From Deinococcales bacterium (lineage in GTDB: Bacteria > Deinococcota > Deinococci > Deinococcales > JAAFIG01): a stretch of DNA of 46,164 nt. Under the pieces are notes generated by a model. That model made no database searches and was not told the origin of the DNA. It worked only from the letters and a program-made list of their open reading frames with translations. A program made the translations under genes and the position numbers. Shown piece after piece: positions 5,617 through 37,015 of the stretch. The stretch covers positions 1 through 46,164 of the forward strand of contig JANNVX010000039.1 of the NCBI GenBank assembly GCA_031414595.1, in the 5' to 3' direction. Each line of letters starts with the position of its first letter. The first letter of the stretch is position 1.

Positions 5617-5713
5617 TTCTTTAATATACGAGATTTTTAATGGGAACAAAAATTTATTTGACCTGAAATCAATTTTCATCAGAACTTGCTGATTTACGGG
5701 TTAGACTGTCGGT

Positions 5714-20449: not shown

Positions 20450-20475
20450 ACCTAAGCATCCTATTGGTTAAATTT

Positions 20476-20976
20476 TTAGAACGACTTATCTCGAGCCAAT
20501 GAATCCACAGCTTTAAGTAGGGTTGGAATGCGGTGAGCGCCGTGCATTTGCTGTACCCGTAAAGCCGCTTGAATTGTATCACACCCGATGCTCGAGATAA
20601 AAAGCGCTTGCTTGGATGCACCACGCAGAATCGGAAGGCTTGGCGCTCCTATAAAATCAGTTTTTGCTACGCCAATGACTGGAATTTTCTGCTCGAGTGC
20701 CATGTACAACCGTGCGCCTAGCCCATGCTTGAAGCTCGAATCTAAGAACACAAAGCTGTCCACCACAATGTATTCGAGCGGTTCGATAATCGTCCCTAGA
20801 ACTGCAAGCAAACACGGTAATTCGCGTTTGTAAAATGCCCCAGCTTCGTACTCGAGAACATCAGCAATTGGTAGGGTCACGGCTCGAGTGGCGGTGCTGT
20901 CTGACCAATCCTTAAAAAGAAGCGCAGCCGCCAGTGCTTGATTATGGGTGTACTGCACATCGAGACAGACTTTCAT
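20476..20976 (-). CDS. nfi: Endonuclease V-family protein (short type)
   Basis: DVQY, YEAGAFYKRELPCL, VVD, GLGARL, VIGVAKT, HRIPTLLK motifs. Confidence 0.8.
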   Translation of the reverse strand: MKVCLDVQYTHNQALAAALLFKDWSDSTATRAVTLPIADVLEYEAGAFYKRELPCLLAVLGTIIEPLEYIVVDSFVFLDSSFKHGLGARLYMALEQKIPVIGVAKTDFIGAPSLPILRGASKQALFISSIGCDTIQAALRVQQMHGAHRIPTLLKAVDSLARDKSF

Positions 20977-21071
20977 GGTTGGTATTATTGCAGAGCAAAG
21001 AATTTTGTGAATGCGCTGAGTAGCTTAAGTAGGTTCGAGACCAAGTACAAACTCAGTCTCGAGGGAGATAA

Positions 21072-23240
21072 TTATGGATTCATGCGAAGCACAAAAAAAT
21101 CGGTGTCCGTGGCAGATAAAGTTTTGTAACCCGCAATCACAATTTTGCCGCTCGGGTCGGTAGCAATTCCAATGGCTCGGTCTTGTTGAGTAGCCGATTG
21201 TGGAAGGCTGAGAATCCCATTGGCTGGGCTGGTGCTGAATGTGGTGTCGCTTATGCCAGAAGCGCTTAATCTTGCGACAAGCGAATCAAATCCAATGTTG
21301 CTGTTGGATGTGGCGCTGTACCCTGCTACCAGAATTTTTCCGTTGCTGTCTAATGTGGCAGCATCAGCACAGGCGGGGTTAGTGTTTGGGATGTATGAAA
21401 ATTTACCACTTGTGCCAAAACCCGTGTCGAGGGCTGGGGTGGTCATGTTAAAACGAATGATGTTAATTTCGCTTGTGCCAACACAACCTATTAAAATCAC
21501 ATTGCCATTTTGGTAAAGCATGTTGTAGTAATTTGAAAATTGTGGCTGGGCAGTAGAAAAAATTCCGTCGCTGCTAAAGGTTGTGTCTAGTATTCCGTTG
21601 GTGTTGAGGCGAGCTACGCCAACATCATAATTTGAACTTCCACCACCAATAATTATTTTGTTGCTCGAGTCTAGGGCAATCCCTTGGGGCGTGTCGTTTG
21701 GGTCGCCTGTGACCGAAAAAGTGGGATTCCAAACAAAGATGTTCAGTCCAGAGTACGTTCCGCCTGTGTTAAAAGTGGTGTCGAGTGTGCCGCCAGTTAA
21801 ATTCAAGCGAAAGGCAACAATATCAACAAAATCTGTCCCGCCGTAACGGGTTTGGGCGGCTGCCACGACATAAGTATTGCCACTGACGGTTTGTAAAGTC
21901 ATGGCGTTGATTTGGTCAGAATCGCCGCCGACATCTCGGGTATACTTGCCATTGGTGGCAAATGTAGCGTCTAGTGTTCCATTGGTCTCGAGCCGAACAA
22001 TGGCAAAATCGCGGGACGTGATTGTGCCGTACCCTCCAACCAATAATTTGCCATCAGGTTGTTGAATCACCGAAAAAGCAACATCGGCATTTGCATTAAA
22101 GTCTATGGTGATAATGCCATCTGTGCCAAAGGTGCGGTCATACGAGCCATCGGGGTTTAGGCGCACAATAATCCAGTCCCTCGTTGCATTGGCTGCCACG
22201 CCACTCGAGCCAACCAGAACAATTTTTCCATCGGCTTGCACAATCATATCGTTCAGGGTTTCTTGGATGTTACTGACGGGTGCAATGTCTCGTTTACCAC
22301 CAGCGCCAAAACACTGATCCAAAGTGGTTACACTGGTACTTGGTGCAGCCACTAAAAAAGCCGTTGGACTGGCACTCGAGCCGGCGGTGCGAACGCGGCA
22401 AGCATTGGTTACATCTTTGCTGGTGCTTAAAGTTGTGCCAGATAAAACCGCAATTTGACTGGCACTAAAACCTGTGGCTCGAGTGTCTGCGCTACTGCTG
22501 GTTTGTTCTTCGAGGCTTTCGGAGACCCTTGAAACCGTGGGTTGGGTAAAGGCGATAAAGGTCATGCTAAAGCGATTGACTTGGCTGCCGGGTTCGTTGG
22601 TGTTGGGGACTTGTACTCCAACTGTCAGTGTTCCAGAATTGCCAATTGCAAGACTACGACTTGAACTGCTGCCCGTAGCTCGAGCCACATAACCATATGG
22701 GAAGAGGTATTCGCCATTTGGTAATAGGCTGCTGGCTTGGGTTTCTAAGGCTGCCACTTCGGTTTCGGTAAAAAATTGGGTGTCGGCTTCGGAACTTAAA
22801 ACTGTTATGGCGTTGCTCATGGCATGGGCTGGTTTGATGCTTTCGGCATAGGTGGTTAAATTGACACTCTGGAAGTTCTGCACATTCTTTAAGGCAGTTG
22901 CGCCTTGGTTGGTCAGTTGATGCTCGGCAACCAATGTTAGGTCGTTTAAGGCAGCCCCAGAATTATTGGACACATTAAACTTTGCAACTAGGAATTTATT
23001 GCCGCCACTGATGATGGCTTGGAATTGATTACTCGAGAAGGCAACAGAACTTTGATTGCTTAAAAGTGCTTGTGAAGATACTCGAGCAGGCAAAAAAGCG
23101 GCTTTGGCAGTCTTGTTTTGTAAATCAAAAGTCAGTTCAACACTGCCCAGCACCTCGAGTTGATTGGTTTTGAAAGGTTGGTTTTGTTGGCACGCCACAA
23201 TAGTCAGTGCTGCAATAATCGGCAGAAGTGCGCGTTTCAT
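21072..23240 (-). CDS. Lipoprotein with delta-60 (DUF5122-type) beta-propeller repeats, copy A
   Basis: Lipobox IVAC; repeated QxDGKIxxxG and RLxxxGxLDxTFxxxG units. Confidence 0.85.
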   Translation of the reverse strand: MKRALLPIIAALTIVACQQNQPFKTNQLEVLGSVELTFDLQNKTAKAAFLPARVSSQALLSNQSSVAFSSNQFQAIISGGNKFLVAKFNVSNNSGAALNDLTLVAEHQLTNQGATALKNVQNFQSVNLTTYAESIKPAHAMSNAITVLSSEADTQFFTETEVAALETQASSLLPNGEYLFPYGYVARATGSSSSRSLAIGNSGTLTVGVQVPNTNEPGSQVNRFSMTFIAFTQPTVSRVSESLEEQTSSSADTRATGFSASQIAVLSGTTLSTSKDVTNACRVRTAGSSASPTAFLVAAPSTSVTTLDQCFGAGGKRDIAPVSNIQETLNDMIVQADGKIVLVGSSGVAANATRDWIIVRLNPDGSYDRTFGTDGIITIDFNANADVAFSVIQQPDGKLLVGGYGTITSRDFAIVRLETNGTLDATFATNGKYTRDVGGDSDQINAMTLQTVSGNTYVVAAAQTRYGGTDFVDIVAFRLNLTGGTLDTTFNTGGTYSGLNIFVWNPTFSVTGDPNDTPQGIALDSSNKIIIGGGSSNYDVGVARLNTNGILDTTFSSDGIFSTAQPQFSNYYNMLYQNGNVILIGCVGTSEINIIRFNMTTPALDTGFGTSGKFSYIPNTNPACADAATLDSNGKILVAGYSATSNSNIGFDSLVARLSASGISDTTFSTSPANGILSLPQSATQQDRAIGIATDPSGKIVIAGYKTLSATDTDFFVLRMNP

Positions 23241-23392
23241 TGTTCACCATCCATAAAATCCAGCGTCTCGAGTGGGTTGTCTAAGGCATTTGTGCCAATC
23301 GGTAAGCTCACGCCTGTTAATTGCACCCAAGTTGTGTGCTGCTCGAGGTGCGGTGGTGAATACGGTTTTTTTGGCTGGTGCAGGTCATTCAT
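23237..23392 (-). CDS. 51-aa RiPP-leader-like micro-peptide MNDLHQPKKPYSPPHLEQHTTWVQLTGVSLPIGTNALDNPLETLDFMDGEQ
   Basis: AGGAGG RBS before ATG 23392; TGA overlaps the ATG of lipoprotein A; homologous to 25743-25880. Confidence 0.8.
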   Translation of the reverse strand: MNDLHQPKKPYSPPHLEQHTTWVQLTGVSLPIGTNALDNPLETLDFMDGEQ

Positions 23393-23469
23393 AAAAGCCT
23401 CCTGATTGAATTCGTTATGGGTCATTAGAATTTTTCATCCAATGACCCACTCGAAAACTTCGTCTGGTT

Positions 23470-25746
23470 TTAATTCGCGCCAAGGTTGAACTGGGCTAAC
23501 ATTCCCCTACGATTCCCAAGAATATTTGAATCATTAAAAGACCCCGAAACCAGTAATTTGCCATTGCTAGGCGTTCCGAGCAGCAAGGCTGAAGTTACTT
23601 CGGTATCTAATGGTATGCTGCCAGCAGTCAGGGTATAAAACCTGATATGGATTGTGTTGCTAAAAAAGGAATTATCTGGTGCGCCAGTGTCCAAGTACCG
23701 CGCTATAAAAGTACGCTCAATGGTACTACCTGAAAACGAAGTTCCAGCAATCAGAATGCGATTATTGGGCTGAACAATAATTTTGCTGGCTCTGACTCGA
23801 GGAGGATTGGTGTTGGAGTAGGTCAATTCTCCACCTGTCGCAAAGGTTGTATCCAAAGAACCATCGTTATTGATTCGCACCAGTGCAAAACCAGTTTGGG
23901 TTAATGACGGGGTAAAATTACCAGAAAACAGAATTTTTGTGCCTTGCAGGGTAACGCTGGTAGCCGTATCGTCGGTGCTACCAGAAATTCCTTGAAGTTT
24001 ATGCCCAATGCCATTAAAAGTTTGGTCTCGAGCGCCTGTGCTGGTGAACCTCATCAATAAAAACACGCCTGGATTGTTGTGTTTACCCGCCACAACAATG
24101 TTACCGCTTGGGTCTATCAGCAGACTTAAGGCTTGATTGTCTAAACTACCGCCGTCCACATCGTCTATGCGGTAGCCAGTGGTGTTGAATGTGGTGTCAA
24201 GTGTACCATCGGTGTTGTACCGAATCAGTAAGACATCATTATGACCAGCCGTACCATTTTTGACCCGTCCGACCGCTACAATTTTTCCATCCGTTTGCAG
24301 GGCAATATCGTTAATCACATGTTCTGAACCTGTTGCGGAGTAAATCTGGGTGTTGAACGTTTCGACACTCGAGAAGGTCGTGTCGTTACCAAGCGTGGCA
24401 TTGATTAAGCTGCGACCAATGACCAATTGGGTTACACCTGCTAAGGTCACAGAATATCCTGCTCGGATAATACGATTTTGTGAATCAATTGCAAGACTGG
24501 TGTAATGGGTACTGCCTAAAGTGGTTGCCATGGCATTACTGAAGCGCAAAATTTGGCGTGAACCATCTGGTAAAAAGGTTGCGACATACGAACCAGTGGT
24601 GAGATTGGTGTCATCATAGTACGTGCCTACCGTGGCAATCCGACCATCTGATAAAAGTCCAACATCGGTATTGACTGCTCTTTGAGCCGGGAAAACAGTA
24701 TGAACTCCACCACCACCAAAGCAATTACTCAGGTCACTCGAGTTTACACTAGGGGCAATACTTTCTAAGTAGGCTTCTGGTACAGCCGCCGTTCCAGCAA
24801 TTCGCACTTGGCAAGCATTGGCAAATTGTCCGGCTGCATGAATTCCATAATCGGCTAATTCATTCTGACCTGAAGAGTAGAGTGTCACTGCTTCGGCAGG
24901 GGCAAGTCCGCTACGACGTGAAACGACTGCCGTGCTTGATTTTTCTTCTAAACTGGCAGAAACTTGGGTAACCGGGGTTGGATTCTCGAACACCAAAGCG
25001 GTGTAACTAAAACGGTAGGCTGTTGGCACACCGGGTTCGTTGCTGCCATCTACAGCCATTGCCAATGTAGCCGTCCCAGTGTCGGTGCTGTTGTTGGCAG
25101 TAATTGTGCGTTGTGTCGCGGCAGTTGGGGCAACTGAATCTCGCACAGTAAAACCATACGGTAGTAAGTATTCACCACTGGCAAGGGCTGTTCCTGCGGT
25201 TGTGGTCATGGCGCTTAAGTCGTACTCGGTAAAGAGGGCTAAATCTTCTTGTCCTGCTACCACTGCTACCGTGCCGTTGCCACTCATAGTTTGGCTAGGA
25301 CGTACAGTTTGGGCATATGAGGCTACAGTCGCAACCCGCAGCTTACTCGAGGTTGTGGTAATCCCACCAAAATCCGTGACATTTTTTAGAGCAGTATTGC
25401 CAATGTTACCGTTTTTGCGGTACGCGACCAAGGTTAAATTCGACAGACTCGCACCCGTTAAATTACGAACGCTAAATTGTGCATTTAAGAATTTTCTGCT
25501 TGGCGTGGTCTGTGTGGCTGCCGAGTATGTGCCAGCCGTGAAAAGCAATTGGGCTTCGTTGACCAAGGCTTGCCCAGCTATTTTTGAAGGGGTGAACATG
25601 GCTTTGGCTTTACCGTTTTCAGCCCCAAAACTGACCTCGAGTGTGCCAAGTAAACGCTGACCTGTATTGCTCTCGAGTTTCGGGGCGTTCTGGCAAGACA
25701 TAAAAGTTGCTGCTACCAAACCAAATAGAATCATTGTCTTTTTCAT
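23470..25746 (-). CDS. Lipoprotein with delta-60 repeats, copy B
   Basis: Lipobox FMSC; N-domain shared with copy A (NLTLVA, YLLPYGF, NEPG, SLEE, NACQVR); delta-60 repeats. Confidence 0.85.
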   Translation of the reverse strand: MKKTMILFGLVAATFMSCQNAPKLESNTGQRLLGTLEVSFGAENGKAKAMFTPSKIAGQALVNEAQLLFTAGTYSAATQTTPSRKFLNAQFSVRNLTGASLSNLTLVAYRKNGNIGNTALKNVTDFGGITTTSSKLRVATVASYAQTVRPSQTMSGNGTVAVVAGQEDLALFTEYDLSAMTTTAGTALASGEYLLPYGFTVRDSVAPTAATQRTITANNSTDTGTATLAMAVDGSNEPGVPTAYRFSYTALVFENPTPVTQVSASLEEKSSTAVVSRRSGLAPAEAVTLYSSGQNELADYGIHAAGQFANACQVRIAGTAAVPEAYLESIAPSVNSSDLSNCFGGGGVHTVFPAQRAVNTDVGLLSDGRIATVGTYYDDTNLTTGSYVATFLPDGSRQILRFSNAMATTLGSTHYTSLAIDSQNRIIRAGYSVTLAGVTQLVIGRSLINATLGNDTTFSSVETFNTQIYSATGSEHVINDIALQTDGKIVAVGRVKNGTAGHNDVLLIRYNTDGTLDTTFNTTGYRIDDVDGGSLDNQALSLLIDPSGNIVVAGKHNNPGVFLLMRFTSTGARDQTFNGIGHKLQGISGSTDDTATSVTLQGTKILFSGNFTPSLTQTGFALVRINNDGSLDTTFATGGELTYSNTNPPRVRASKIIVQPNNRILIAGTSFSGSTIERTFIARYLDTGAPDNSFFSNTIHIRFYTLTAGSIPLDTEVTSALLLGTPSNGKLLVSGSFNDSNILGNRRGMLAQFNLGAN

Positions 25747-25880
25747 TTGCCATCACCTTCTTGTCCTAAAACCGTGCCAAATGGGAAAGATGCCCCTGTG
25801 AGGCTAATAAATTGCGGTTGTTGCTCGAGTTTTGGGGCTTGGTACTCGAGTTTTTTGGGTACTTCTATGATTTCGTTCAT
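25743..25880 (-). CDS. 45-aa RiPP-leader-like micro-peptide MNEIIEVPKKLEYQAPKLEQQPQFISLTGASFPFGTVLGQEGDGK (not in the ORF track)
   Basis: Hand translation; AAGGA RBS; ATGA overlap with lipoprotein B; shares YxxPxLEQ...LTGxSxPxGT with 23237-23392. Confidence 0.8.
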   Translation of the reverse strand: MNEIIEVPKKLEYQAPKLEQQPQFISLTGASFPFGTVLGQEGDGK

Positions 25881-26063
25881 TATTTTTTCCTTTCCCAAAT
25901 CTTGGGTTTGCGATTTACACGGACTCCCGTTTGAACCGTGACAGAAGCGTATAAATTGGCTCTCTCGCAGCTTCCGCTTGGGCGAAAATCTTCAAAAGCA
26001 ACCCGAAAATATGTAAATAGCAAAACAGTAAAAGTCAAAAAAACCTGTACAATGAGCGTTCTG

Positions 26064-29000
26064 ATGCGCTTACACTTGCTTGGGCAACCTCATTTGGAAT
26101 TGGGCGACAAAGTTTTGCCACTGTCCAAGAACCACAGTCAAATTCTGGCTTGGCTGACGATGCACCAAAAAACGGGGCTACCAATGCCCCGAGTACGCTT
26201 GGCTCGAGCCATCTGGACGGACTGCACCGACGAACAAGGACGCAAACGCCTAGCCAACAGTTTGTACCGATTACGCCAAGAAATTCCAGAAATAGAAGAA
26301 TTTATGATTGGCGATGCCACATCCTTAGCGCTGCAACCAATGCCCACCGATGCGCTCGAGTTCCAAAAACTAATGCAGAGCCAAACCCCACAAGATTGGT
26401 TTCAGGCTCTTGAAATGTACCAAGGCGATTTACTCGAGGGCGAAGATGTACCTTGGTTAGACACATGGCGCGTAGAACTGCATCAAACCCTGTTGCAAGG
26501 TCTACGCCAAGCCATCCAGCAAGCCGACTCGAGCAGGGCAATACTCTTATCGCAACGCCTGATTCAACTCGAGCCGTGGAACGAAGAGGCACACACACAC
26601 TTGATACGCCTGTACGCCGACAATCAGCGCTTACCCGAAGCCATCAGTGCTTATGAAAAACTTGCAGACACCTTAAAACAAGAATTCTCGAGCCAACCAC
26701 GCCCAGAAACCCAAGTGTTTGTTAAAGACCTTGAACGCCAACTTGAACAGCAAAACAGTCAAACCCACCAAATCATGGTTGGGCGGAGTCTGGAATGGCG
26801 TTCTTTAACCAATGCCCTGAATGCCGTAAAAATCGGACAAGGTGGAATTATTTTAGTCGAGGGCGAACCCGGATTGGGCAAAACCCGTTTACTGCTCGAG
26901 TTAAAGTCATTATCGGCTTGGCACAATGTTTCTGCACTCTACGGAGCAGCCGCCAACAGCACACCCGCTTATGCCCCACTCGAACAATCCCTGCGCGGTG
27001 CGGCGGTACTACTCGAGCAAGCCACGCCCTTAATTCAAAAAAACCTCGAGCCACTGCTAAAAACTGCTCTGGATAACGAAGCCCAAGCCAATCCGCAATT
27101 GGTCAGTGCCGCCCTAGAACGCTGGTTGCGTCACCTCGAGCAACCGACGGTTTGGTTACTTGACGACCTGCACTGGGCAGGGGATTTATTCTGGAATGTG
27201 CTAAAAATGTTGGCTCGGGTCAGTCAACAACGCCCTGTGCTGCTGGTCATCTGCACCCGCAGCCAAGAATTGCGCGAAAATCAAAAAGCTTTTGAAACCC
27301 TGCTCGAGATTCGCCAGAACCAACAAGCCATGCACCATGCCCTCGGCGGACTGAGCTTAGAAGAATGTACACAATTGGCTCGAGGGCAAGGCAAGAACCT
27401 TGGCAATAAAGAACTCGAGCAGATGCACCGCATCAGTGCTGGTAATCCACTGGTTTTTCAGGAATTGGTACTGGGAAATTCTGCCGATAACCACCTAAGC
27501 GACGCTTTCCAAAGTCGGTTTTCCAAATTGGATAAAATGGCTCGAGAAGCGCTCGAAGCCGCATCGGTACTGGGTAAGCACCTAGACTTAAACACTTGGG
27601 AAGCGATGTTGGGTGTACAACCACCAATTACACAACTCCTCGAGACTCGGTTTTTGCATAAAGAACCCGAACTTGGTTTCCAACACGATTTAACACGGGT
27701 TTTTGTGTATGAACAAATGAAACTCGAGACACGGCAGAAATGGCATGGGCTGGCTTTTGAAGTCTTAAAAACACAGCAGACTCGAGCGGCTGTTTTAGCG
27801 CACCATGCCGAGGAAGCGGGGTTATTGGCGGAAAGTGTGGAACATTACCGTAATGCCGTATCAGAAGCCCTTAATCTAAATGCGTTTCAAGAAGCCAGTC
27901 GTTTATTAAAACTTGGTTTTTTATACAATCAACAATACCCAAATCAACTCGAGACAATGCACTTAAAGTTACTGCAATTGCAATTAGCTCAAGTCCAAAC
28001 TGCCAGTTTACCGGAAATTGAGGATTTAGAATCTTTAGAACAATCTGCTCGAAAACTTCAAGTTCATGATTTGGTATTCAAGTCACTGCAAATGCAATTC
28101 GATGTTTATGGTCTCAATGGAAATCATGAAAAGGCAGAACTGGCAGCTAATACTTTAATAAAATTTACTCAAGAAACTAATAATCAAGAAAAAGAAATAA
28201 CAGCCTTAACAAAAATCGCACTGCTGTTTGCTAAAACGCATTTTGAAGCTGGCAAAGGTCTAGGCTTTGCGTTAAGGGCTTACAATCTCTGTCAGAATAC
28301 CCCTATTTCAACTCAATTGCAGTTGCAAGTTTTGATTGCAGTAATTAATACACGTATGCGTACCAAAGAGTACGAACTTGCTTGGGAAATTCTCGTAGAA
28401 GCTGAAGAATTGGTTGTCAGTCATCCAGATTTAGTTGGATCAGAATTTTTGTTACTTAACACAAAAGGGAATCTAGCCAACACCTTAGAACACTATGAAC
28501 TTGCAGTGACAGTATTTCAAAAGCAACATAAATTGTCTTATTCCCTCGGAGATAACCGCGCTGTAGAAGTAACTTTAGCAAACTTAGCTGACGTACTTAA
28601 AAAATTAGGACGATTTGAAGAAGCCTTAGTGTGGGCAGAAGAATTTTCGCAAATGATGCCAGCCGCAAAAAACTGGCAGGAAGAAAGTAAAATTGCTTAT
28701 TATTTTTCCGAAATAACAGAAATTCTTGTTCGCATGGGGCGGCTAAATGAAGCTAAACAAATACTTCAACCGTTAGAAAAATGGATTAAAGAAGGTGCAA
28801 CTTCAATAGGTTCAAAACAAATTCTCCATATTTTCTTACAAGTACATCGTACCCAAGGAACATATCAAGAAGGATTAGAATTTCTAAAAGCTGTTCCTGA
28901 AACGATGTATACAAAACTGATTGCTGCCGAACTGTATTACTTAGCAGGATTCAGATACGAAGCTGAACTTAGAATCAGTCAAGCCCTTGCAGAACCAAAC

Positions 29001-29495
29001 CACTTTTCAAAAAATTTTGGGACACTCAGTCTGTTTTACACTGCTTATGTCATTTATCAACAAGCAATTGATCTTGAAAAAGCACGTTTTGCTTTACTTA
29101 GATTCACTAGCCATATCGAAACCCTCGAGAATCGGCAAATCATGCTTAAAAATGTGTACTACGCCAAAGCCATCGAAGCCGCTTGGCAACAACAAACCCT
29201 CGAGACAACTGTTATTGAACTCCCCGCTTTAACTGGCGAAGGCACGATTACAATCACTTGGACACTGAGTAGCGGTGCGTCGGACAAAGCACATCTCGAG
29301 CAACACGGCAAGGTTGCCCTGCGTAATCACCGCTTAAAGCGCCTAATGCTAGAAGCCCAAGCCCAAGGTGCGAAAGCCTTGCAAAGAGAATTGGCAACCG
29401 TGCTAGGTGTAACAGTCCGAACGATTGAAGCTGACATAGCCCAATTAAAGACAGAAGCATCTGTGCCACACGCTAAACCGCAAGCAAATCCATAG
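26064..29495 (+). CDS. Large regulator 1: wHTH-BTAD, AAA ATPase, TPR-like region, C-terminal DUF1670-like HTH
   Basis: MRLHLLGQP, YQGDLLEG, LEPWNEEAH, GEPGLGKTRL, LLDDLHWA, SAGNPL, FQHDL, QRELATVLGVTVRTIEADI. Confidence 0.88.
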   Translation: MRLHLLGQPHLELGDKVLPLSKNHSQILAWLTMHQKTGLPMPRVRLARAIWTDCTDEQGRKRLANSLYRLRQEIPEIEEFMIGDATSLALQPMPTDALEFQKLMQSQTPQDWFQALEMYQGDLLEGEDVPWLDTWRVELHQTLLQGLRQAIQQADSSRAILLSQRLIQLEPWNEEAHTHLIRLYADNQRLPEAISAYEKLADTLKQEFSSQPRPETQVFVKDLERQLEQQNSQTHQIMVGRSLEWRSLTNALNAVKIGQGGIILVEGEPGLGKTRLLLELKSLSAWHNVSALYGAAANSTPAYAPLEQSLRGAAVLLEQATPLIQKNLEPLLKTALDNEAQANPQLVSAALERWLRHLEQPTVWLLDDLHWAGDLFWNVLKMLARVSQQRPVLLVICTRSQELRENQKAFETLLEIRQNQQAMHHALGGLSLEECTQLARGQGKNLGNKELEQMHRISAGNPLVFQELVLGNSADNHLSDAFQSRFSKLDKMAREALEAASVLGKHLDLNTWEAMLGVQPPITQLLETRFLHKEPELGFQHDLTRVFVYEQMKLETRQKWHGLAFEVLKTQQTRAAVLAHHAEEAGLLAESVEHYRNAVSEALNLNAFQEASRLLKLGFLYNQQYPNQLETMHLKLLQLQLAQVQTASLPEIEDLESLEQSARKLQVHDLVFKSLQMQFDVYGLNGNHEKAELAANTLIKFTQETNNQEKEITALTKIALLFAKTHFEAGKGLGFALRAYNLCQNTPISTQLQLQVLIAVINTRMRTKEYELAWEILVEAEELVVSHPDLVGSEFLLLNTKGNLANTLEHYELAVTVFQKQHKLSYSLGDNRAVEVTLANLADVLKKLGRFEEALVWAEEFSQMMPAAKNWQEESKIAYYFSEITEILVRMGRLNEAKQILQPLEKWIKEGATSIGSKQILHIFLQVHRTQGTYQEGLEFLKAVPETMYTKLIAAELYYLAGFRYEAELRISQALAEPNHFSKNFGTLSLFYTAYVIYQQAIDLEKARFALLRFTSHIETLENRQIMLKNVYYAKAIEAAWQQQTLETTVIELPALTGEGTITITWTLSSGASDKAHLEQHGKVALRNHRLKRLMLEAQAQGAKALQRELATVLGVTVRTIEADIAQLKTEASVPHAKPQANP

Positions 29496-29562
29496 AATTT
29501 AGTAAGGCTGTGATACACTGAAACCACCCTGAAGATTGATGGGTGAAATTCAAGGAGAACAT

Positions 29563-29694
29563 ATGTTGAAAAAGTTAATTGCTTTGTTTTTGGTAGTTGG
29601 TCTATTTGCAATGAGTAACAACGCGTCTGCCGGTTGTATCACTATCTCTCTATTGGATGAAACGGGAGCCGTTGTTGGCGTAAGATGTAATTAA
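29563..29694 (+). CDS. 43-aa secreted peptide MLKKLIALFLVVGLFAMSNNASA|GCITISLLDETGAVVGVRCN (not in the ORF track)
   Basis: Hand translation; AAGGAG RBS, TGaTACACT extended -10 at 29511-29519, Sec signal with ASA site, downstream terminator, two paralogues in the window. Confidence 0.85.
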   Translation: MLKKLIALFLVVGLFAMSNNASAGCITISLLDETGAVVGVRCN

Positions 29695-29735
29695 ATTGAG
29701 TCGTTGATATTTTAATAAAAAACGTTTAGCTCGAG

Positions 29736-29769
29736 ACCGAGATAGCAATTATCTTAGTCTCGGTTTTTT
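29736..29769 (+). terminator. Rho-independent terminator after the peptide gene
   Basis: ACCGAGA...TCTCGGT stem followed by TTTTT. Confidence 0.7.
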
Positions 29770-29827
29770 AGTGTTGGCTATCACTCAAAGAAAATATTAA
29801 AATTGCTTTATAGTCACTTCTCGAGAA

Positions 29828-30235
29828 TCAGACTAAAAAAATACTTGGCGGAACTTGAAAACGCGCCGCGAATCGCTTGGCTAAAACCTTGCCAATGCCA
29901 CGTTCTCCGCGCAGAATTTTAGACAATGCCGATTGGTTCACCACGCCTTCTTGTGCCAATTTGTACTGCGTTAAACCGTGTGCATCCATCAGTGTTTGTA
30001 GTAATTCAAATGGCTTAGACTCGAGCGGCTTGGGTTCATTGTGCTTTTCCCACTCGAGGGCGTAACCAGCCAGCACACGCCATAAACTGCGGTATGGTTC
30101 GGCGTTGGTGTCGTACTTCTCGATTAAATTGGTGGTGAATTCTAGTAACTCGAGGTAATCAGCTTCGGATTGTGGGGCTTTGATCTGTTGCTGAAAAGTT
30201 TGCCAAGTTTTGATAACACTGTTCATGCTGGTCAT
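29828..30235 (-). CDS. higA: HigA-type HTH antitoxin
   Basis: PQSEADY, LQTLMDAHGLTQYKLA...QSALSKILRGERGI...FQVPPSIF; ATGA overlap with higB. Confidence 0.85.
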   Translation of the reverse strand: MTSMNSVIKTWQTFQQQIKAPQSEADYLELLEFTTNLIEKYDTNAEPYRSLWRVLAGYALEWEKHNEPKPLESKPFELLQTLMDAHGLTQYKLAQEGVVNQSALSKILRGERGIGKVLAKRFAARFQVPPSIFLV

Positions 30236-30543
30236 GATGGTCTGCCTCCTTTGTTCCATTTGTCATAGTCTTTGTGGTTCAGCACGTAAAGTATAAACAC
30301 AGCACGAAATTCAAAATCTATTCGGGTAATCACACGGTATTTGTTGCCGCCAATATCAAAAATAAAAACCAGTGTTCCATCTTTGGCTTTTGCAGTGTCC
30401 ACCGCAGGAAAAAAGGCTTTGAGTTGGGCAAAATTTTCTGGCTCGAGTTTGCAAAGTAAATTGTACCAACCGCGTAAGACAGGTTCGGCTTCTGGCTGAT
30501 GTTCGCAAAACGCTCGTATGGTGCGGTAAGCGATAACATTCAC
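30232..30543 (-). CDS. higB: HigB-type mRNA interferase toxin
   Basis: MNVIAYRTIR, IFDIGGNKYRVI, LNHKDYDK; promoter TTGCAA-17-TATACT ends 6 nt before GTG 30543. Confidence 0.9.
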   Translation of the reverse strand: MNVIAYRTIRAFCEHQPEAEPVLRGWYNLLCKLEPENFAQLKAFFPAVDTAKAKDGTLVFIFDIGGNKYRVITRIDFEFRAVFILYVLNHKDYDKWNKGGRPS

Positions 30544-30649
30544 ATCTCGAGTATAGGTCATTTTGGACTGTATTGCAAGTTCTGTGAAACGACTGAGGTT
30601 GGGACAGCAAAAAGCCTGTGCAAGACTGCACAGGCTCGAGAATATAGAT

Positions 30650-32125
30650 TTAATTCGCACCGAGTTTGATTTTACTAAGCATTCCGTACTGACTACCGGC
30701 GGTGCTGTCTGGAACGAGCCAGCCACCAATCACGAGCCGACCATCGGTTGATGTACCGCCAATCAGAGCCGATAACGCCGTGGTTTTGAAGGTGTTATTG
30801 CCAAAATTATAGATTCGCCGATTCGATGCCACTGGGTTACTAATACTGGTGTCGGGGTTAAAGGTCGTGTCGGCAGCCCCATTTAACAAGTACCGAAAGG
30901 CAAAGACCTGAGATGCACCGCCAGTGTTTTCTTCTGCTCCAATCACAATGATTTTATCATCCGACTGTACCAAGACTTTTTTGGCGCGTAAGGCTTGGGC
31001 AAAAGCACTGGCAGCAATCACTGTTCCACCACTGCCAAAAGTTGTATCGAGCGTCCCATCAGAATTTAAGCGAATCATGGCAAGGACGGTGGCTGTGGTG
31101 GTGGCTGTTCCAACCACAATAATTTTTTGGTTTTGCAGTGCCACACTGCTGGCAGCGTCACCAGAACTACCAGGAATGCTTTGTATGACATGCCCGACCG
31201 TGTTAAAACTGGTGTCTCGAGCGCCAGAACTGGTAAAACGCATGATTAAAAAAGAACCTGTTGTGCCGTGTTTACCGACCACAATGATATTGCCACTTGC
31301 ATCTAGCATCACGCTCGAGGCTTCGTTGTCGCTGTTTGTGCCGTCCACATCGTCTATGCGGATACCTGTACCGTTAAAACTGGTATCGAGTGCGCCAGTG
31401 GTGGTGTAACGCATCACAAAAACATTTTTATCGCCAGTTGTACCGTTTCTGACGTAACCAACAGCCACAATTTGATTATTGGGTTGTACCACAAGGTCAG
31501 TCATGACGTGTTCTGAACCTGCGGCGCTATGAATTGTCGTATTGACGGTTTGGTTGCTCGAGAAGGTAGTGTCGTTGCTGATGTTTGAACCGACTACACT
31601 GCGTCCCATAATCAACTGAGTCCCAGTGGCTGTGGTGATATGACCACCGCGAACAATACGGTTTAGCGAGTCAACCCCAACACTGGTGTAATAGGTGTTG
31701 GTGGCAGATGTTCCGTTGCTAAAAACAGCCCGAATATGGTCTCCGTTTGGGTAATAAAGACCAAGCCAACCCCCTGTGCTGCTGGGCATAACTTGTCCAA
31801 CACTGGCAATTCGACCATCAGAAAACTGGGCTATATCTTCGATACTGCTTGTTCCACCCGGGCGGATGACCCGAAACCCACCAGATGCAAAACACGGATC
31901 CATCCTGCCGACCACACTGGTAGGTGCAATACTTTCTAAGAAGGCTTCTGGGGCGGCGGCACTGCCAGCAATCCGAACCTGACAAGCATTGGCGTAGTCG
32001 CCTAGTGCATGAAGTGCATAATCGGAGGCGGTGTTCTGTGCCGAAGAGTAAATCGTGGTTACTTCTTCGTTGCTGTTACGTCTGGTTTCGATGTCGGTGC
32101 TGGCTTTTTCGTCTAAACTGCCAGC
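30650..32125 (-). pseudogene. 5'-truncated delta-60 lipoprotein gene, copy C
   Basis: The frame stays open upstream of the track start and matches copy B back to GSLDEKAST (~32122), then loses homology and hits a stop with no start codon. About 260 N-terminal aa, including the lipobox, are missing. Ends in LGAN like copy B. Confidence 0.8.
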
Positions 32126-32201
32126 GTAACGAAATTCAACAAAATCCAGAACAGCACGAAGATTTGTATTTTAATGCGCGAGAAAAGTACCAAAAAGTAA
32201 A

Positions 32202-32222
32202 TCTCGAGTAGTTTACTCGAGA
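32202..32222 (-). terminator. CTCGAG-pair hairpin terminating the peptide genes
   Basis: TCTCGAGTA-GTT-TACTCGAGA, followed on the minus strand by TTTACTTTTT. Confidence 0.6.
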
Positions 32223-32249
32223 CTACATGATATTTACAGGTAATTACCT

Positions 32250-32387
32250 TTAGCGGCTTTCATTTACAGTTATAACTGCCTCGCCATGTTCATCTAATAG
32301 CTCGACCAGAATATCTTTAGCTTGAGAAACTCCACTAAACGCAAATACGCTAATAATGAGGAAAACAGCAATCAACTTTTTTAACAT
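32250..32387 (-). CDS. 45-aa secreted peptide MLKKLIAVFLIISVFAFSGVSQA|KDILVELLDEHGEAVITVNESR
   Basis: AAGGAG RBS, TGcTATACT extended -10 (32431-32439), Sec signal ending SQA. Confidence 0.85.
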   Translation of the reverse strand: MLKKLIAVFLIISVFAFSGVSQAKDILVELLDEHGEAVITVNESR

Positions 32388-32541
32388 AACTACTCCTTTG
32401 TTCCTAATGTGTCGCAAAGCAGAATAAGATAGTATAGCAGGTAAAACAATTGGATTCATTGTGCGTACTGTGATTAAAACGAGGGCTAAAAGTCTTAATA
32501 TATGCTCTTACTTCACTTTAGTGAAATAAGAGCATGGTTAA

Positions 32542-32685
32542 TTATTCACCATGCTCATCTAAAAGCTCAACTAGAATATCGGTGCCGCAATTGGATGATG
32601 TATCTTCGGTATCTATAGCCAGAGAAAATCCACTAAATGTGAATGCTCCAATGGCAAGGAAAACAGCAATTAACTTTTTTAACAT
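32542..32685 (-). CDS. 47-aa secreted peptide MLKKLIAVFLAIGAFTFSGFSLA|IDTEDTSSNCGTDILVELLDEHGE (not in the ORF track)
   Basis: Hand translation; AAGGAG RBS, TGgTAAACT extended -10 (32724-32732); start region duplicated with the 32387 gene. Confidence 0.82.
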   Translation of the reverse strand: MLKKLIAVFLAIGAFTFSGFSLAIDTEDTSSNCGTDILVELLDEHGE

Positions 32686-32841
32686 AACTACTCCTTTATT
32701 TCTACGGCATCCTAGAGTCAATTAGTTTACCAGATAAAACAAGAAAAATCTAAAAACAGAAAAAAAAGCCGTTCTGAACCATATGAAATAAGAATTAATT
32801 AGTATGTAAACTTTAATTGCTCGGCAAATCACAGCCAGATT

Positions 32842-35800
32842 TTGGCGTTCCTAACGATGCAGCAAAACCCTAATTTGCCGATGCCCCGAGTGCGTTTGGC
32901 TCGAGCCATCTGGACAGACTGCACCGACGAACAAGGACGCAAACGCCTGACCAATAGCCTGTACCGGCTGCGCCAAGAACACCCAGAATTCGAGGAATGT
33001 ATTGTGGCTGATGCCACCACTTTGACCCTTCAACCGATTTGGACAGACACCAACCAATTTATGCGCTTAATTCATAGCCAAAAAGCCCAAGATTGGTTTA
33101 CGGCACTCGAGCATTACCAAGGTGATTTACTCGAAGACCAAGACATCCCTTGGTTAGAAATATGGCGTGTAGAACTACACCAAACGATGCTGCAAGGGTT
33201 ACGCCAAGCCATAGCACAAGCTGACTCGAGCCGAGGCATTGTCTTATCGCAACGCCTGATTCAACTCGAGCCTTGGAACGAAGCGGCACATACCCACTTA
33301 ATTCGGTTGTATGCCAAGTTAGGACAACGACCAGAAGCGATTGCGGTATTTGAAAAACTTGAACAGACCCTCACCCAAGAATTCTCGAGTCAACCACACC
33401 CAGAAACACGGGCATTTATTGCTGATTTACAACGCCAACTCGAGCAACCACACAACAAACCAAACCAAGCCTTGGTTGGACGCGACCAAGAATGGCGTGT
33501 ACTGACCAATGCCTTAAATGCGCTGCGGGTCGAACAGGGCGGTGTGATTATACTCGAAGGAGAAGCTGGACAAGGCAAAACCCGTTTACTGCTCGAATTA
33601 CAATCCCTTGCCAAATGGCACCAAATCCCAACTTTAGCTGGCATGACTTTTGGTGCAAAACTGCCTTATGCCCCACTCGAACAAGCCCTACAAAGTGCCA
33701 CTGTTCTACTCGAGCAGAGCAGTACCTTAATTCAAAAGAATCTCGAGCCGCTCCTAAAAACCAGTGTAGAGATTGAATCTTCGCCACAAGTCATCAGTGC
33801 GACTTTAGAACGTTGGATACGCCATCTTGAACAACCCACGCTATGGTTACTCGACGACTTACACTGGGCTGGCGATTTATTCTGGACAGTCCTAAAAATG
33901 TTGACCCGAATGGCACAACAACGTCCGGTCTTGCTGGTTCTAGCGGCTCGTTCCGAAGAACTGCTTGGCAATCCAAAAGCCTTCGAGACCCTAACCGAAA
34001 TTCGTCAAACCCCACAAGTGCAACATTATCGGCTTGGAGGACTAAGCCTAGAAGCCTGTGCTGTTTTAGCTCGAGGACTCGGTAAAACCATCAATTCAAT
34101 CGAACTCGAGCAACTGCACCGCGTCAGCGCTGGCAACCCCTTGGTTTTTGGAGAATTGGTACTCGGGCAACCCGCCGAACAACACCTCGAGAATGCTTTT
34201 CAGGGCAGATTCGCAAAACTGGATCAAAAACTTCAAAATGCCCTCGAAGCCGCTTCGGTACTCGGCAAACAATTTGATTTACAAGTTTGGACAGCCATGC
34301 TTGATACCCCCGCCCCGATAGCCCAACTATTAGAAACACGCTTTATCCTCGAGTCACCGACTTTGGCTTTTCAACACGACTTAACACGGGTTTTTGTGTA
34401 CGAACAAATGAGTCTTGAGACACGGCAAAAATGGCACGAACGCGCTTTTGAAGTCTGCAAAAATTTTCAAACCCGAGCCATTTTGCTTGCCCACCACGCC
34501 CAAGAAGCCAATTTGTTAAGCCAAAGTGTGACTTATTACCGCCGAGCCGCCGAAGAAGCCCTAGGATTTTGTGCCTACCAAGATGCCCAAAATTACATCC
34601 AGCAAGCAACGATAAATAATCAATCCCTTCAAGCTAATGTACTCGAGGCACTACATTTGCAACTGATGCAGATGCGAATTTCATTTATTCAAGAGCCGGG
34701 GAATCAATCGGTGTTGGACTTAGAAACTTTGGAAACTCAGACCCGCCAATATCAAGACAAAGACCTAATGTATCACACCTTCGTTCTTAAATTGGGAATT
34801 CTAGCGACTCAAGGAAAAAGCCAAGCAACTTTACAAACCGCTGAGTCACTATGGTTCTGGACTCGAGAAATAAGAGACTCTGTACTAGAAGTCCGTGCAT
34901 TAACGATTAGTTCAGTCACCATCGCTCGGTCTTTTCTCGAGTCAGATAAAGCCCTTCTGTATGCCCAAAAAGCCCACGAGTTATGTCAAGTACACGAAAT
35001 TCCTGCCAGAGAACAATTTCGTACACTGATTGCCCTGACTAATTCGTATATCCGTGCTTCCAATTTTGAATCGGCGTGGCAAACACTTGCCGAAGTCGAA
35101 CAGATATTTCATGACAACCCATCACTGGTTATCCATGCTGTACAGCTTTTTAACATTAAAGGCGCATTAGCTCTTTATGGTGAACATTTTGAATTAGCAG
35201 TAAACGTTTTTCAAAAGCAACTTGACGATTGTTACACCCTAGGTGATGGTCGGCAAATCAATACCACCTTGGGCAATTTAGCCAGTTCGTTAATTAGACT
35301 AGGACGTTTTGAAGAAGCGCTTATTTGGGCAGAGGAACGCGCCGAACGAGCGCCAAAAGCAAAGCACTTACTGAGTGAAAGTCAAGTTGCCTATTATTTT
35401 ACCAATCTCGCCGAAGTTTTACTTTGTTTAGGACGAATTGACGAAGCCAATTCTTTACTCGACCCAATAAAATCATGGGCAATTGCAGAAGGTGCTTCTT
35501 TTTATGCCACAAAAACCAGAGAGGTTTTAGCCCTCATTTTACGGGCTAAAAAACAATTTGTGGCAGCCTTAGAAATTTTGTCGAATACCGAACAAGATTT
35601 AACGTTTCAATCTGAACTGGCATGTTTAGCGGGTTTGCAAGAAAAAGCCAAACCACTTCTTGGTCTGGCTTTGACAGCTACTTCGCCACTCGAGAATAAC
35701 CACTCGGCAATGTGCTACCACTACACAAAGTACCTGATTTATCAAAATCCAACCGTCCTTGAATTGGCTCGTTTTTCACTGCTCAGATTCGCTTGTCAAA

Positions 35801-36177
35801 TCGAAACCCTCGAGAATCGGCGGGTGATGCTTAAAAACGAGTATTACGCCAAAGCCGTAGAAGCCGCTTGGCAACAACAAGCCCTCGAGACAAGCGTTGT
35901 AGAACTCCCTGCTTTAACTGGCGAAGGCACAATTACAATCACTTGGACACTGAGTAGTGGCGCTTCGGACAAAGCCATTCTCGAGCAGCAAGACAAAGTG
36001 GCACTTCGTAATCACCGCTTAAAACGCCTGATGCTTGAAGCCCAAGCCCAAGGCGCAAAAGCCTTGCAGCGTCACCTTGCTACTGCCCTAGGGGTGGCAG
36101 TACGCACCATCGAAACCGATTTTTCTCAATTTAAGACTACAGCACAGGAAAAATCTCTGAACTCGAGTTCAGATTAA
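32842..36177 (+). CDS. Large regulator 2, paralogue of 26064-29495, lacking the first ~20 aa (possibly impaired)
   Basis: Same architecture (GEAGQGKTRL, LLDDLHWA, C-terminal HTH). Homology starts at NHSQI (~32827), with an in-frame stop at ~32800 and no RLHLLG strand. Confidence 0.8.
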   Translation: MAFLTMQQNPNLPMPRVRLARAIWTDCTDEQGRKRLTNSLYRLRQEHPEFEECIVADATTLTLQPIWTDTNQFMRLIHSQKAQDWFTALEHYQGDLLEDQDIPWLEIWRVELHQTMLQGLRQAIAQADSSRGIVLSQRLIQLEPWNEAAHTHLIRLYAKLGQRPEAIAVFEKLEQTLTQEFSSQPHPETRAFIADLQRQLEQPHNKPNQALVGRDQEWRVLTNALNALRVEQGGVIILEGEAGQGKTRLLLELQSLAKWHQIPTLAGMTFGAKLPYAPLEQALQSATVLLEQSSTLIQKNLEPLLKTSVEIESSPQVISATLERWIRHLEQPTLWLLDDLHWAGDLFWTVLKMLTRMAQQRPVLLVLAARSEELLGNPKAFETLTEIRQTPQVQHYRLGGLSLEACAVLARGLGKTINSIELEQLHRVSAGNPLVFGELVLGQPAEQHLENAFQGRFAKLDQKLQNALEAASVLGKQFDLQVWTAMLDTPAPIAQLLETRFILESPTLAFQHDLTRVFVYEQMSLETRQKWHERAFEVCKNFQTRAILLAHHAQEANLLSQSVTYYRRAAEEALGFCAYQDAQNYIQQATINNQSLQANVLEALHLQLMQMRISFIQEPGNQSVLDLETLETQTRQYQDKDLMYHTFVLKLGILATQGKSQATLQTAESLWFWTREIRDSVLEVRALTISSVTIARSFLESDKALLYAQKAHELCQVHEIPAREQFRTLIALTNSYIRASNFESAWQTLAEVEQIFHDNPSLVIHAVQLFNIKGALALYGEHFELAVNVFQKQLDDCYTLGDGRQINTTLGNLASSLIRLGRFEEALIWAEERAERAPKAKHLLSESQVAYYFTNLAEVLLCLGRIDEANSLLDPIKSWAIAEGASFYATKTREVLALILRAKKQFVAALEILSNTEQDLTFQSELACLAGLQEKAKPLLGLALTATSPLENNHSAMCYHYTKYLIYQNPTVLELARFSLLRFACQIETLENRRVMLKNEYYAKAVEAAWQQQALETSVVELPALTGEGTITITWTLSSGASDKAILEQQDKVALRNHRLKRLMLEAQAQGAKALQRHLATALGVAVRTIETDFSQFKTTAQEKSLNSSSD

Positions 36178-36257
36178 ACAATCTGTAATTTTCGGGATGT
36201 AGATGTTTAGCTCGCCGCAAGTGATACCTGTGCGATTAGGTTCTTGTATTCTTGGTT

Positions 36258-36650
36258 ATGAATTTTTTGCGATCTCGAGGCTGGGTTTTACTTGTACTGT
36301 TGCCAATAGCGGCGTTTGTCGCGTGGTTGCTACTGCCCAAAGCATTACATATGAACATTGTCGAAGCCAAAACCGAACACTTTTTTCGGATCGGTCAGCA
36401 TGATATTCGGATTGTCCTCAGTCCCTTGGCAAAAGGTGATAACGGCACGGCTGAAGTTCAGATTTACAATGGTACAATCCTGCTCGAGTCTCGAGAATCG
36501 CTGTTTAACTACGACACGCTGCAAAATAATCCTCCTGCCTTTGTGCGTTATGCGTGGCTGGATGGGGATTTAATACCAGATTTACTGCTCGAGTTGCAAT
36601 CTGAATCCTTGTACCTCAGCAGCCAAAGCGGAAAGGTCGTGGCTTTATGA
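36258..36650 (+). CDS. Hypothetical membrane-anchored protein
   Basis: N-terminal TM helix; TATTCT 5 nt before ATG 36258; ATGA overlap with the next gene. Confidence 0.65.
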   Translation: MNFLRSRGWVLLVLLPIAAFVAWLLLPKALHMNIVEAKTEHFFRIGQHDIRIVLSPLAKGDNGTAEVQIYNGTILLESRESLFNYDTLQNNPPAFVRYAWLDGDLIPDLLLELQSESLYLSSQSGKVVAL

Positions 36651-37015
36651 ATAACTTTGTGTACTTACCCGCCGAGGGCATCTGGCGAAGTATCCCAAAC
36701 CCAGACTCGAGTTTTGAGATTCTAATAGCGGGTGACAGCACTGAACCCAACTCGGCGCATTTGGCATTTCTGGGGGATTTACTACCGCATCTCGAGGCGG
36801 TGCGGCTTAGGGCAATTGGCTACTTAACGGTTTTTGTGAATCCAGCCCTTAAGCTAGATTGGTTTTTTGAAGCACTGCACATCACAGGTGATTTTGCCAC
36901 CGAATTTGAATTATCTTTTTCGCTCGAGTCAGATGTTTACGGCGATTGGCGGGTTGGTTTTTACACCATCAATCAGCATTTTGAACCTGATTCGTTCTCG
37001 AGGACGCAGAGATGA
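36647..37015 (+). CDS. Hypothetical protein
   Basis: 122-aa ORF translationally coupled to the upstream gene. Confidence 0.6.
   Translation: MNNFVYLPAEGIWRSIPNPDSSFEILIAGDSTEPNSAHLAFLGDLLPHLEAVRLRAIGYLTVFVNPALKLDWFFEALHITGDFATEFELSFSLESDVYGDWRVGFYTINQHFEPDSFSRTQR

Follow-up and report, generated by a model that had tools for sequence, protein, structure and literature searches.

The window analysed here is a 46,164-bp contig of a Deinococcota metagenome-assembled genome (MAG) of 4.49 Mb in 120 contigs with a GC content of 0.47 (contig C39 of the source genome, G000; GenBank:JANNVX010000039.1, positions 1 to 46,164). It carries two paralogous genes for regulators of about 1,100 residues, regA and regB, adjoined by three tiny genes with Sec-type signals and an LLDExG core (pepA, pepB and pepC) and located beside genes for lipoproteins with delta-60 repeats. 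Based on the letters alone, the original prediction had placed all of these elements correctly, and had proposed that the peptides are the cognate ligands of the regulators in an RRNPP-like quorum circuit whose output is the lipoprotein operon. Comparison with 364 Deinococcota genomes and a collection of 5.8 billion proteins supports the link between regulator and operon and the reality of the peptide genes, and speaks against the pairing of receptor and ligand. With fair rather than high confidence, we propose instead that AfsR-like regulators control operons in which a micro-protein gene (mic) precedes a lipoprotein gene, and that the peptides form an accessory, strain-variable cassette with an extracellular role.

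The regA gene (26064..29495, plus strand) encodes 1143 amino acids (aa) comprising a SARP (BTAD) module, a STAND P-loop NTPase, tetratricopeptide repeats (TPR) and a C-terminal helix-turn-helix (HTH)-like domain; its open reading frame (ORF) spans 25938–29495, and position 26064 is the likely start as judged from the called form P0005 and the orthologues. Its paralogue regB (32842..36177, plus strand; ORF of 1111 aa) shares 57.5% identity with it over 1116 aa. Pfam matches were to BTAD (4.4e-14), AAA_16 (3.5e-22), TPR_12 and DUF1670 (4e-6) in regA, and to BTAD (6.6e-15) and AAA_16 (1.4e-17) in regB, which has the TPR and the C-terminal DUF1670-like stretch as in regA; the TPR matches in the set were to TPR_12, TPR_4 and TPR_10. 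The P-loop motif G-x-G-K-T (G240, G243, G245, K246 and T247) was invariant among 10 homologues. With E up to 0.01, Pfam detected no OmpR-type winged helix (Trans_reg_C) in either regulator; PF00486 is present in several homologues. The best match among solved structures was the TPR sensor PH0952 (6mfv, 1e-05), and no solved AfsR chain was matched by sequence with E of 0.01 or less. Close relatives of the regulators (E from 0 down to 1e-224) occurred only in four genomes of the same genus (G129–G132) and in G191, and the named sources of regB homologues were Deinococcota and Meiothermus MAGs. The predicted assignment of the regulators to SARP/STAND/TPR proteins is thus borne out. It was also noticed that the GC content falls to 0.37 in the TPR-encoding part of regA (28000–29000), which is the least conserved stretch between orthologues and has no blastn match in G132 over 27839–28600; the sensor region of regA is hypervariable.

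By domain order, regA and regB resemble AfsR of Streptomyces, in which BTAD is followed by a P-loop STAND NTPase and then by TPR, and in which a small-protein gene adjoins as target. They differ from AfsR in belonging to Deinococcota, in possessing the extra C-terminal HTH-like (DUF1670-like) domain, and in having as divergent partner a micro-ORF and surface lipoprotein operon rather than antibiotic genes. As far as domain content can tell, they are a variant of the AfsR-type SARP-STAND-TPR proteins with an added C-terminal HTH-like domain.

Divergent from regA, on the minus strand, lie two pairs of genes, each consisting of a mic gene followed by a delta-60 lipoprotein gene: mic2 (25743..25880; 45 aa), which is translationally coupled to d60_2 (23470..25746; 758 aa), and mic1 (23237..23392; 51 aa, without a signal peptide), whose stop overlaps the start of d60_1 (21072..23240; 722 aa) in the sequence ATGA and whose own ATG is preceded by CAGGAGG. 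The scores of TIGR02608 (delta-60) in the window were 214.9 bits for d60_1, 153.9 bits for d60_2 and 161.4 bits for a third gene, against a curated cut-off of 76.5, and d60_1 also matched DUF5122 (2.5e-40). The d60_1 product carries a lipobox Cys and, besides a delta-60 beta-propeller, an N-terminal domain (about 270 aa) that it shares with paralogues: this domain could be aligned with that of 12 of them, and the lipobox Cys was invariant in d60_1, d60_2 and 11 paralogues. The C-termini of these lipoproteins vary (delta-60, FG-GAP, SBBP, RCC1, subtilase, cadherin-like and nuclease-like). A structural model of the shared domain of about 270 residues consisted mostly of beta strands with three short helices (mean predicted local distance difference test score, pLDDT, 68.5; predicted template modelling score, pTM, 0.74), and Foldseek found nothing in the PDB that matched it with an E of 0.001 or less (best value, 0.022). 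A literature search on delta-60 repeats found no paper in the library searched.

This arrangement is conserved. A mic gene with a delta-60 lipoprotein gene was divergent from the regulator at 6/6 orthologous 5′ ends (L031, L032, L033, L034, L035 and L038), counting those in which the 5′ end of the regulator gene was intact and lay inside the contig. In G129–G132 the d60_2 orthologues were 74–97% identical, and the mic2 orthologues upstream of them 80–96% identical. The divergent regA/mic2 control region (25881..26063; 183 bp) contains conserved blocks as well: in an alignment of four regA-type loci and one regB-type locus (A6) the mean column identity was 78%, with the invariant blocks ACCGTG..AGAAGC.TATAAA and ACCC..A..TATGT, and a C-x-A-A-A-A unit repeating at a spacing of about 11 bp was seen by eye only. 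AfsR-type regulators bind direct repeats that overlap the −35 element of the promoters they target. The predicted divergence of the regulators from delta-60 lipoprotein genes holds for the conserved locus; in the window, the delta-60 gene on the far side from regB, d60_3 (30650..32139, minus strand), is a 5′-truncated fragment without a lipoprotein signal.

AfsR offers a possible mechanism. According to one report (PMC10936776), the NOD and TPR parts of AfsR inhibit its SARP module until ATP binds; another (PMC10832544) describes activation of afsS by AfsR, with the small AfsS product in turn attaching to AfsR and strengthening its binding to promoters. The conserved unit here is probably an AfsR-like transcription factor (SARP/BTAD, STAND NTPase, TPR sensor and C-terminal HTH-like domain) placed divergently from an operon in which mic, a non-secreted micro-protein of 45–51 aa, is translationally coupled to a large surface lipoprotein (beta-rich N-terminal domain plus delta-60 propeller). 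By analogy with AfsR, the NTPase/TPR part would keep the regulator inactive until a nucleotide and some ligand release it, the released protein would activate the mic-lipoprotein promoter in the common intergenic region, and regA would in this way switch on the mic2-d60_2-mic1-d60_1 unit. The module in which STAND regulator, micro-protein and polymorphic surface lipoprotein come together is lineage-specific and uncharacterised and, with the peptide cassette, would give openings onto an AfsR-like regulator working outside actinomycetes.

The mic family extends well beyond this locus. In G000 it has 15 paralogues, 13 of them outside the window (L064–L075), all at the 5′ end of a gene for a large protein; 13 of the 15 have an in-frame ATG upstream of the motif, each preceded by a Shine-Dalgarno-like sequence (GGAG/AAGG-type), and the copies on contigs C22 and C6 have none. 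Members were found in 19/364 Deinococcota genomes, including 7/7 of its own genus and 6/6 of a sister genus, and the family gave 155 proteins in the collection of 5.8 billion and 181 clusters at 50% identity, all unnamed and almost all of 38–89 aa. STAND regulators of other subfamilies are divergent from mic on contigs C49 and C88 of G000, with one nearby on C18, and a STAND regulator was divergent from mic at 5–6 of 30 mic loci sampled in relatives.

These associations suggest an alternative modelled on the AfsR/AfsS loop (precedent in PMC10832544). Here the cytoplasmic mic protein, itself made from the regulated operon, would attach to the STAND regulator, or else to the lipoprotein precursor, and modulate its activity; the LLDExG peptides would be irrelevant to regulation. 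It is consistent with the absence of a signal peptide from mic, with the strict coupling of mic to a lipoprotein gene in 15 paralogous loci, and with the repeated adjacency of mic to STAND regulators of at least three subfamilies. We nevertheless consider it unlikely, since most mic-lipoprotein loci of G000 have no adjacent regulator (an unrelated upstream neighbour was present on five contigs, C60, C75, C86, C15 and C6, and three loci were at contig ends), mic has no sequence similarity to AfsS, and its resemblance to the leader peptides of ribosomally synthesized and post-translationally modified peptides (RiPPs) points elsewhere.

That resemblance concerns lasso-peptide precursors, whose leader motif has the spacing Y-x-x-P-x-L with T at +10 from L. 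The mic motif (alignment A3) is lasso-leader-like, with Y-x-x-P-x-L-E, T-G ten residues on, an invariant-rich S-L-P-I-G-T block and an acidic tail; the Pfam-bearing Protein Atlas clusters nearest to mic were Subterisin and lasso-leader families (0.81–0.83), which is a lead only. Unlike lasso precursors, mic has no Asp/Glu at core positions 7–9, and no gene for a cyclase, a peptidase or a RiPP recognition element adjoined mic at the 12 loci scanned. Genes of related kinds are present in G000, namely a probable lasso-type cluster on contig C58 (13054–16293; L106) with a 117-aa Transglut_core3 peptidase, an 89-aa ORF and an ABC transporter, and a PqqD gene located on C75, some 4 kb away from a mic locus; the Transglut_core3 and PqqD genes lie away from the mic loci, unlike the adjacent B and C enzymes of lasso clusters.

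The three peptide genes have features of genuine coding genes. On the plus strand, pepA (29563..29694) encodes a 43-aa precursor with a predicted mature peptide of 20 aa (Gly-24 to the C-terminal Asn; core SLLDETG), and is followed by a terminator-like hairpin and T-run (29731..29769, plus strand; RNAfold −16.2 kcal/mol, then TTTTTT). On the minus strand, a 681-bp cassette (32140..32820) contains 1) pepB (32250..32387), with a 45-aa precursor, a predicted mature peptide of 22 aa (Lys-24 to the C-terminal Arg; core ELLDEHG) and a 3′ hairpin at 32200–32224, and 2) pepC (32542..32685), with a 47-aa precursor and a predicted mature peptide of 24 aa (Ile-24 to the C-terminal Glu) that ends with the core ELLDEHGE. 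pepC is a tandem copy of the pepB unit (repeat D1, 82% over 95 nt). As read directly from the n-, h- and c-regions of the sequences, all precursors begin with MLKKLIA and have a hydrophobic core of about 13 residues and an AxA-type site (ASA/G, SQA/K and SLA/I, the slash marking the cleavage); pepA also fits the pattern A-S-A-G-C, which we take to be lipobox-like. The mature parts share I-x-[VI]-x-L-L-D-E-x-G and have predicted net charges of −1, −4 and −8 for pepA, pepB and pepC, respectively. The sequence AAGGAG stands 6–7 nt 5′ of each ATG, and a hairpin of −16 to −21 kcal/mol lies 3′ of each stop.

Among pepB, pepC and two copies in G131, the proportion of synonymous differences (pS) was 0.36–0.64, which is near saturation, and that of non-synonymous differences (pN) was 0.08–0.16, giving pN/pS ratios of 0.12–0.37 (0.12–0.28 in pairs that involve pepB or pepC); ratios against pepA were 0.41–0.62 with pS near-saturated. 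Shine-Dalgarno sites, hairpins and purifying selection together indicate that these are real genes, and, as in the original prediction, they are equipped with export signals; by these sequence criteria, pepA, pepB and pepC are old, selected coding genes, and their LLDExG likeness is beyond chance. They would thus encode Sec-exported acidic peptides of 20–24 aa.

The family is very small. By tblastn, the 4.49 Mb of G000 contained only the three window copies, and a profile of the three peptides had full-length matches in 2/364 Deinococcota genomes, G000 and G131, the latter with two tandem copies; the next-best match, in G132 (E 9.8e-5), covered the signal peptide only. Seven matching proteins were present in the 5.8-billion collection, four being forms of the window's own genes. 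The core is C-terminal or C-proximal behind a variable pro-region, and pepC and P0127 stop right after it. NCBIfam and Pfam had no family for the three peptides or the two mic proteins, and pepB had no usable match in the Protein Atlas. A metagenome scan passed four loci, of which L060 and L061 (GC 0.30) matched in the signal peptide only and were dropped as unrelated, and L059 and L062 matched in the mature part only, inside tail tube genes. The LLDExG family is therefore a tiny, apparently new family of selected secreted peptides, in which a discrete cassette with defined ends is joined to different flanks in two genomes. It was also noticed that G132 has, on its contig C15 (L041, 1387–1611), a tiny gene not adjoining a regulator, with a very similar signal peptide (FAFSGVASA in the h- and c-region, against FAFSGVSQA of pepB) and an unrelated, Cys-containing mature part of 14 aa; the genus may hold further small secreted peptides sharing one signal peptide.

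The linkage between peptides and regulators was assessed at the orthologous loci, and it was not conserved. A six-frame search of eight relatives' loci revealed no LLDExG-type motif, and tblastn gave no peptide match there. A peptide gene was absent 3′ of the regA orthologue in all three assessable genomes (0/3; G129, G131 and G132), and the cassette was absent beside both intact regB orthologues (0/2; G129 and G130); it was present with a 5′-truncated regB in 2/2 genomes (G000 and G131). A motif-independent finder of short ORFs that combine a Shine-Dalgarno site with a signal-like N-terminus returned just the three window genes and two in L063 of G131, and nothing in the other 8/9 relatives' regulator loci or in three paralogous STAND loci. 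In G191, tandem regulators that are 38–40% identical have no LLDExG motif, no mic and no small ORF with a signal peptide near them. The expected linkage among homologues was thus seen in one of nine relatives' regulator loci (L063) and in none of the three paralogous STAND loci.

The peptide genes lie in indels. In G129, the 3′ end of regA joins a full-length d60_3 within about 90 bp, and in G132 and G131, regA runs directly into higA, so the pepA segment (about 29456–29819) is missing at 3/3 assessable orthologous sites and represents an indel. At the other end of the locus, sharp breakpoints were located at 32139 and 32821, between which the window has 681 bp and G129 has 1162 bp that encode the d60_3 N-terminus and its mic, along with the control region and the first 21 codons of regB. 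The window's d60_3 corresponds to about residues 263–758 of d60_2 (44.5% identity by tblastn), lacks a signal peptide and the N-terminal domain, and has 95.6% DNA identity to the full-length G129 gene up to a sharp stop at 32139; regB, which points away from it, has homology to its orthologues beginning at 32821 (codon 22), its native start and promoter being gone. The G130 orthologue P0001 (1139 aa, 97% identical) has 28 extra N-terminal residues and a mic upstream. At regB the cassette thus stands in place of the 5′ end of the divergent mic-lipoprotein operon, the control region and the regB start.

In G131, the cassette (L063, about 175–692) corresponds to window 32805–32150 with 70–80% DNA identity and the same ends; the junctions differ, falling near d60_3 residue 150 and near regB residue 258, downstream of the P-loop, and regB has lost about 257 codons with the DNA-binding, BTAD and P-loop (245–247) parts. 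No terminal inverted repeats or target duplications were seen at the cassette ends. Contigs of 6401 bp assembled per run from two runs, which may be from the source study, span 28800–32946 with 0 differences, and the window junctions they reproduce are therefore not an assembly artefact. In runs X5 and X9, which belong to other studies, no contig covered 29570–29723 or 32188–32803; one contig of X9 connects 29383 with 29819, on one side by a stretch of 26 letters, which is short of the trust limit and makes it a hint only. A higBA-like toxin-antitoxin pair lies between regA and d60_3 (29828–30561), with a HTH antitoxin gene (higA-like, 29828..30259, minus strand; HTH_3 1.3e-07) and a RelE-family toxin gene (higB-like, 30232..30561, minus strand; HigB_toxin 6.9e-18; ATG at 30561); it is present in G131 and G132 and absent from G129, and is thus another indel in a variable locus. 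By sequence comparison, pepA, pepB and pepC are a rare, strain-variable cassette family sitting in indels of the regulator locus, and not the conserved partner of the regulators. We infer that the peptides themselves most likely have an accessory role outside the cytoplasm that does not depend on regA or regB; this is the weakest part of the explanation.

These results bear directly on the model of the original prediction, in which pepA and pepB/pepC are secreted, processed and re-imported pro-peptides whose core binds the TPR sensor of the adjoining STAND regulator (pepA with regA, pepB/pepC with regB) and switches mic-lipoprotein transcription, as an RRNPP-like quorum circuit on an AfsR-like scaffold. 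The locus does look like RRNPP systems (Rap/Phr, PlcR/PapR and AimR/AimP) in that a TPR protein adjoins a tiny gene with a signal peptide and a short peptide with a C-proximal core. RRNPP receptors combine a HTH or phosphatase module with a peptide-binding TPR domain of about 300–450 aa, and RRNPP systems have been described from Firmicutes and their phages; unlike them, regA and regB are STAND NTPases of 1111–1143 aa that matched no RRNPP-specific Pfam family, and the adjacency of peptide and regulator is not conserved among orthologues. Judged by architecture and by this failing adjacency, the locus is not a member of the RRNPP systems. A literature search joining RRNPP, SARP and peptide found no paper in the library searched, and none of the papers listed for STAND, BTAD, TPR and signaling peptides was relevant to BTAD receptors.

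Several observations weigh against our explanation or favour such a circuit. The precursors consist of a signal peptide followed by a variable pro-region and, at the C-terminus or close to it, a conserved core; all genomic copies of the peptides (5/5, in G000 and G131) lie inside a single regulator locus; and the core types track the two paralogues, pepA-type adjoining regA and pepB-type adjoining regB. The peptides are under purifying selection, and so is regB: its lineage-specific synonymous and non-synonymous changes numbered 32:11 in G000, 29:13 in G130 and 103:42 in G129, and G000 has no internal stop, so that regB of G000, being without relaxed constraint, may still work from an internal start. 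The genomes G129–G132 are fragmented MAGs (57–89% complete) of one genus, and are kin rather than independent samples. Finally, docking of pepB residues 16–45 on regB residues 540–1111 scored 0.35, and the best of three controls 0.01, with runs agreeing in at least 52% of contacts and a partner pLDDT of at least 39.

The docking result has to be read against its calibration, in which the mark was reached by 58/80 solved complexes and 2/110 mismatched pairs; with scores of 0.60 or less, it was reached by only seven of the 80 solved complexes and by both of the passing mismatches. By the rating of the tool, a pass at such a score is wrong more often than right except where the pairing was already probable on other grounds, and the docked fragment included eight residues of the signal peptide. 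The genomics make the pairing of pepB and regB unlikely beforehand, and the pass gives weak support to the modelled interaction. Against the circuit itself, 1) the regulators occur without the peptides in sister genomes, at none of the three regA and neither of the two intact regB orthologues, which was the finding that the original prediction had named as its refutation, 2) in G000 the cassette has destroyed the operon supposed to be the output, together with the control region and the start of regB, 3) in G131, where the cassette abuts a regB that lacks the DNA-binding, BTAD and P-loop portions, the peptides have nevertheless stayed conserved, and 4) the core is identical among the pepB-type copies, whereas paralogous pherotypes usually have diversified cores. 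Since sister genomes keep the regulators without the peptides, we regard a peptide-sensing circuit as improbable; were it real, direct peptide quorum sensing would reach a new phylum and receptors of an NLR-like kind. A more specific form, in which pepA and pepB/pepC are two pherotypes sensed by the TPR of the neighbouring STAND regulators and the peptide-less sister strains carry eavesdropping 'solo' receptors, appears about equally doubtful; if correct, it would be the first RRNPP-style peptide quorum circuit outside Firmicutes, on an NLR-like scaffold and in a new phylum.

A further alternative derives the peptide ORFs by exaptation from pieces of a contractile-tail tube gene (PF06841); they would then be either functionless or exported mimics of a tube beta-hairpin. 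By BLASTP, the mature part of P0124 was identical at 16/17 positions to residues 96–112 of a PF06841 protein on metagenome contig L059, and a profile-profile comparison (hhalign) gave a probability of 93% over 19 columns; the proteins of L059 (1966–2418) and L062 (1–351) match PF06841 at 2e-33 and 3e-32, respectively. The tube-like segment of the peptide is located at window 32262–32318, and its counterpart is a beta-hairpin of a T4 gp19-like protein of an unrelated organism. However, the match came from a pattern scan seeded with nine of those residues, so that the pairwise E-values are post hoc; the similarity is limited to 17–19 residues, and hmmscan, with E values as high as 10 allowed, matched none of the five peptides scanned to PF06841. 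In G000 a search for a PF06841 gene came up empty; the control genomes of the profile search were silent too, so the evidence for its absence comes from tblastn with two tube proteins. Neither L059 nor L062 shows the CTCGAG excess of the host (0 sites), and no relative of pepA, pepB or pepC was found in viral contigs. As strong purifying selection, the signal peptide, the Shine-Dalgarno site and the terminator speak for a function of the peptides, this origin is very unlikely to account for them.

The flanks of the window are ordinary chromosome, with uvrB, homoserine dehydrogenase, a sugar ABC transporter, GH38 and signal peptidase I among the genes, and Rfam gave 0 matches at E up to 0.1 over 20000–37000. 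A third STAND regulator (2782–5679, minus strand; 964 aa; NB-ARC, AAA_22 and TPR) lies 20 kb upstream; it is about 22–26% identical to regA and regB, and many such paralogues are present in G000.

The palindrome CTCGAG is about 21-fold above expectation, with 235 sites in the window versus 11 expected and 23,235 versus 1,096 in the whole of G000. Its density was 4–7 per kb in the loci of relatives (L031, L033, L063, L037, L012 and L023), including that of G191 with a GC content of 0.65, and only 0.4 per kb in L007 (GC 0.73), a single locus from g8, the largest genus of the phylum. A literature search on CTCGAG palindromes in Deinococcus-Thermus found no paper. The excess may represent a lineage-specific, highly iterated palindrome, and sites were found inside terminator hairpins and at one indel junction (29820).

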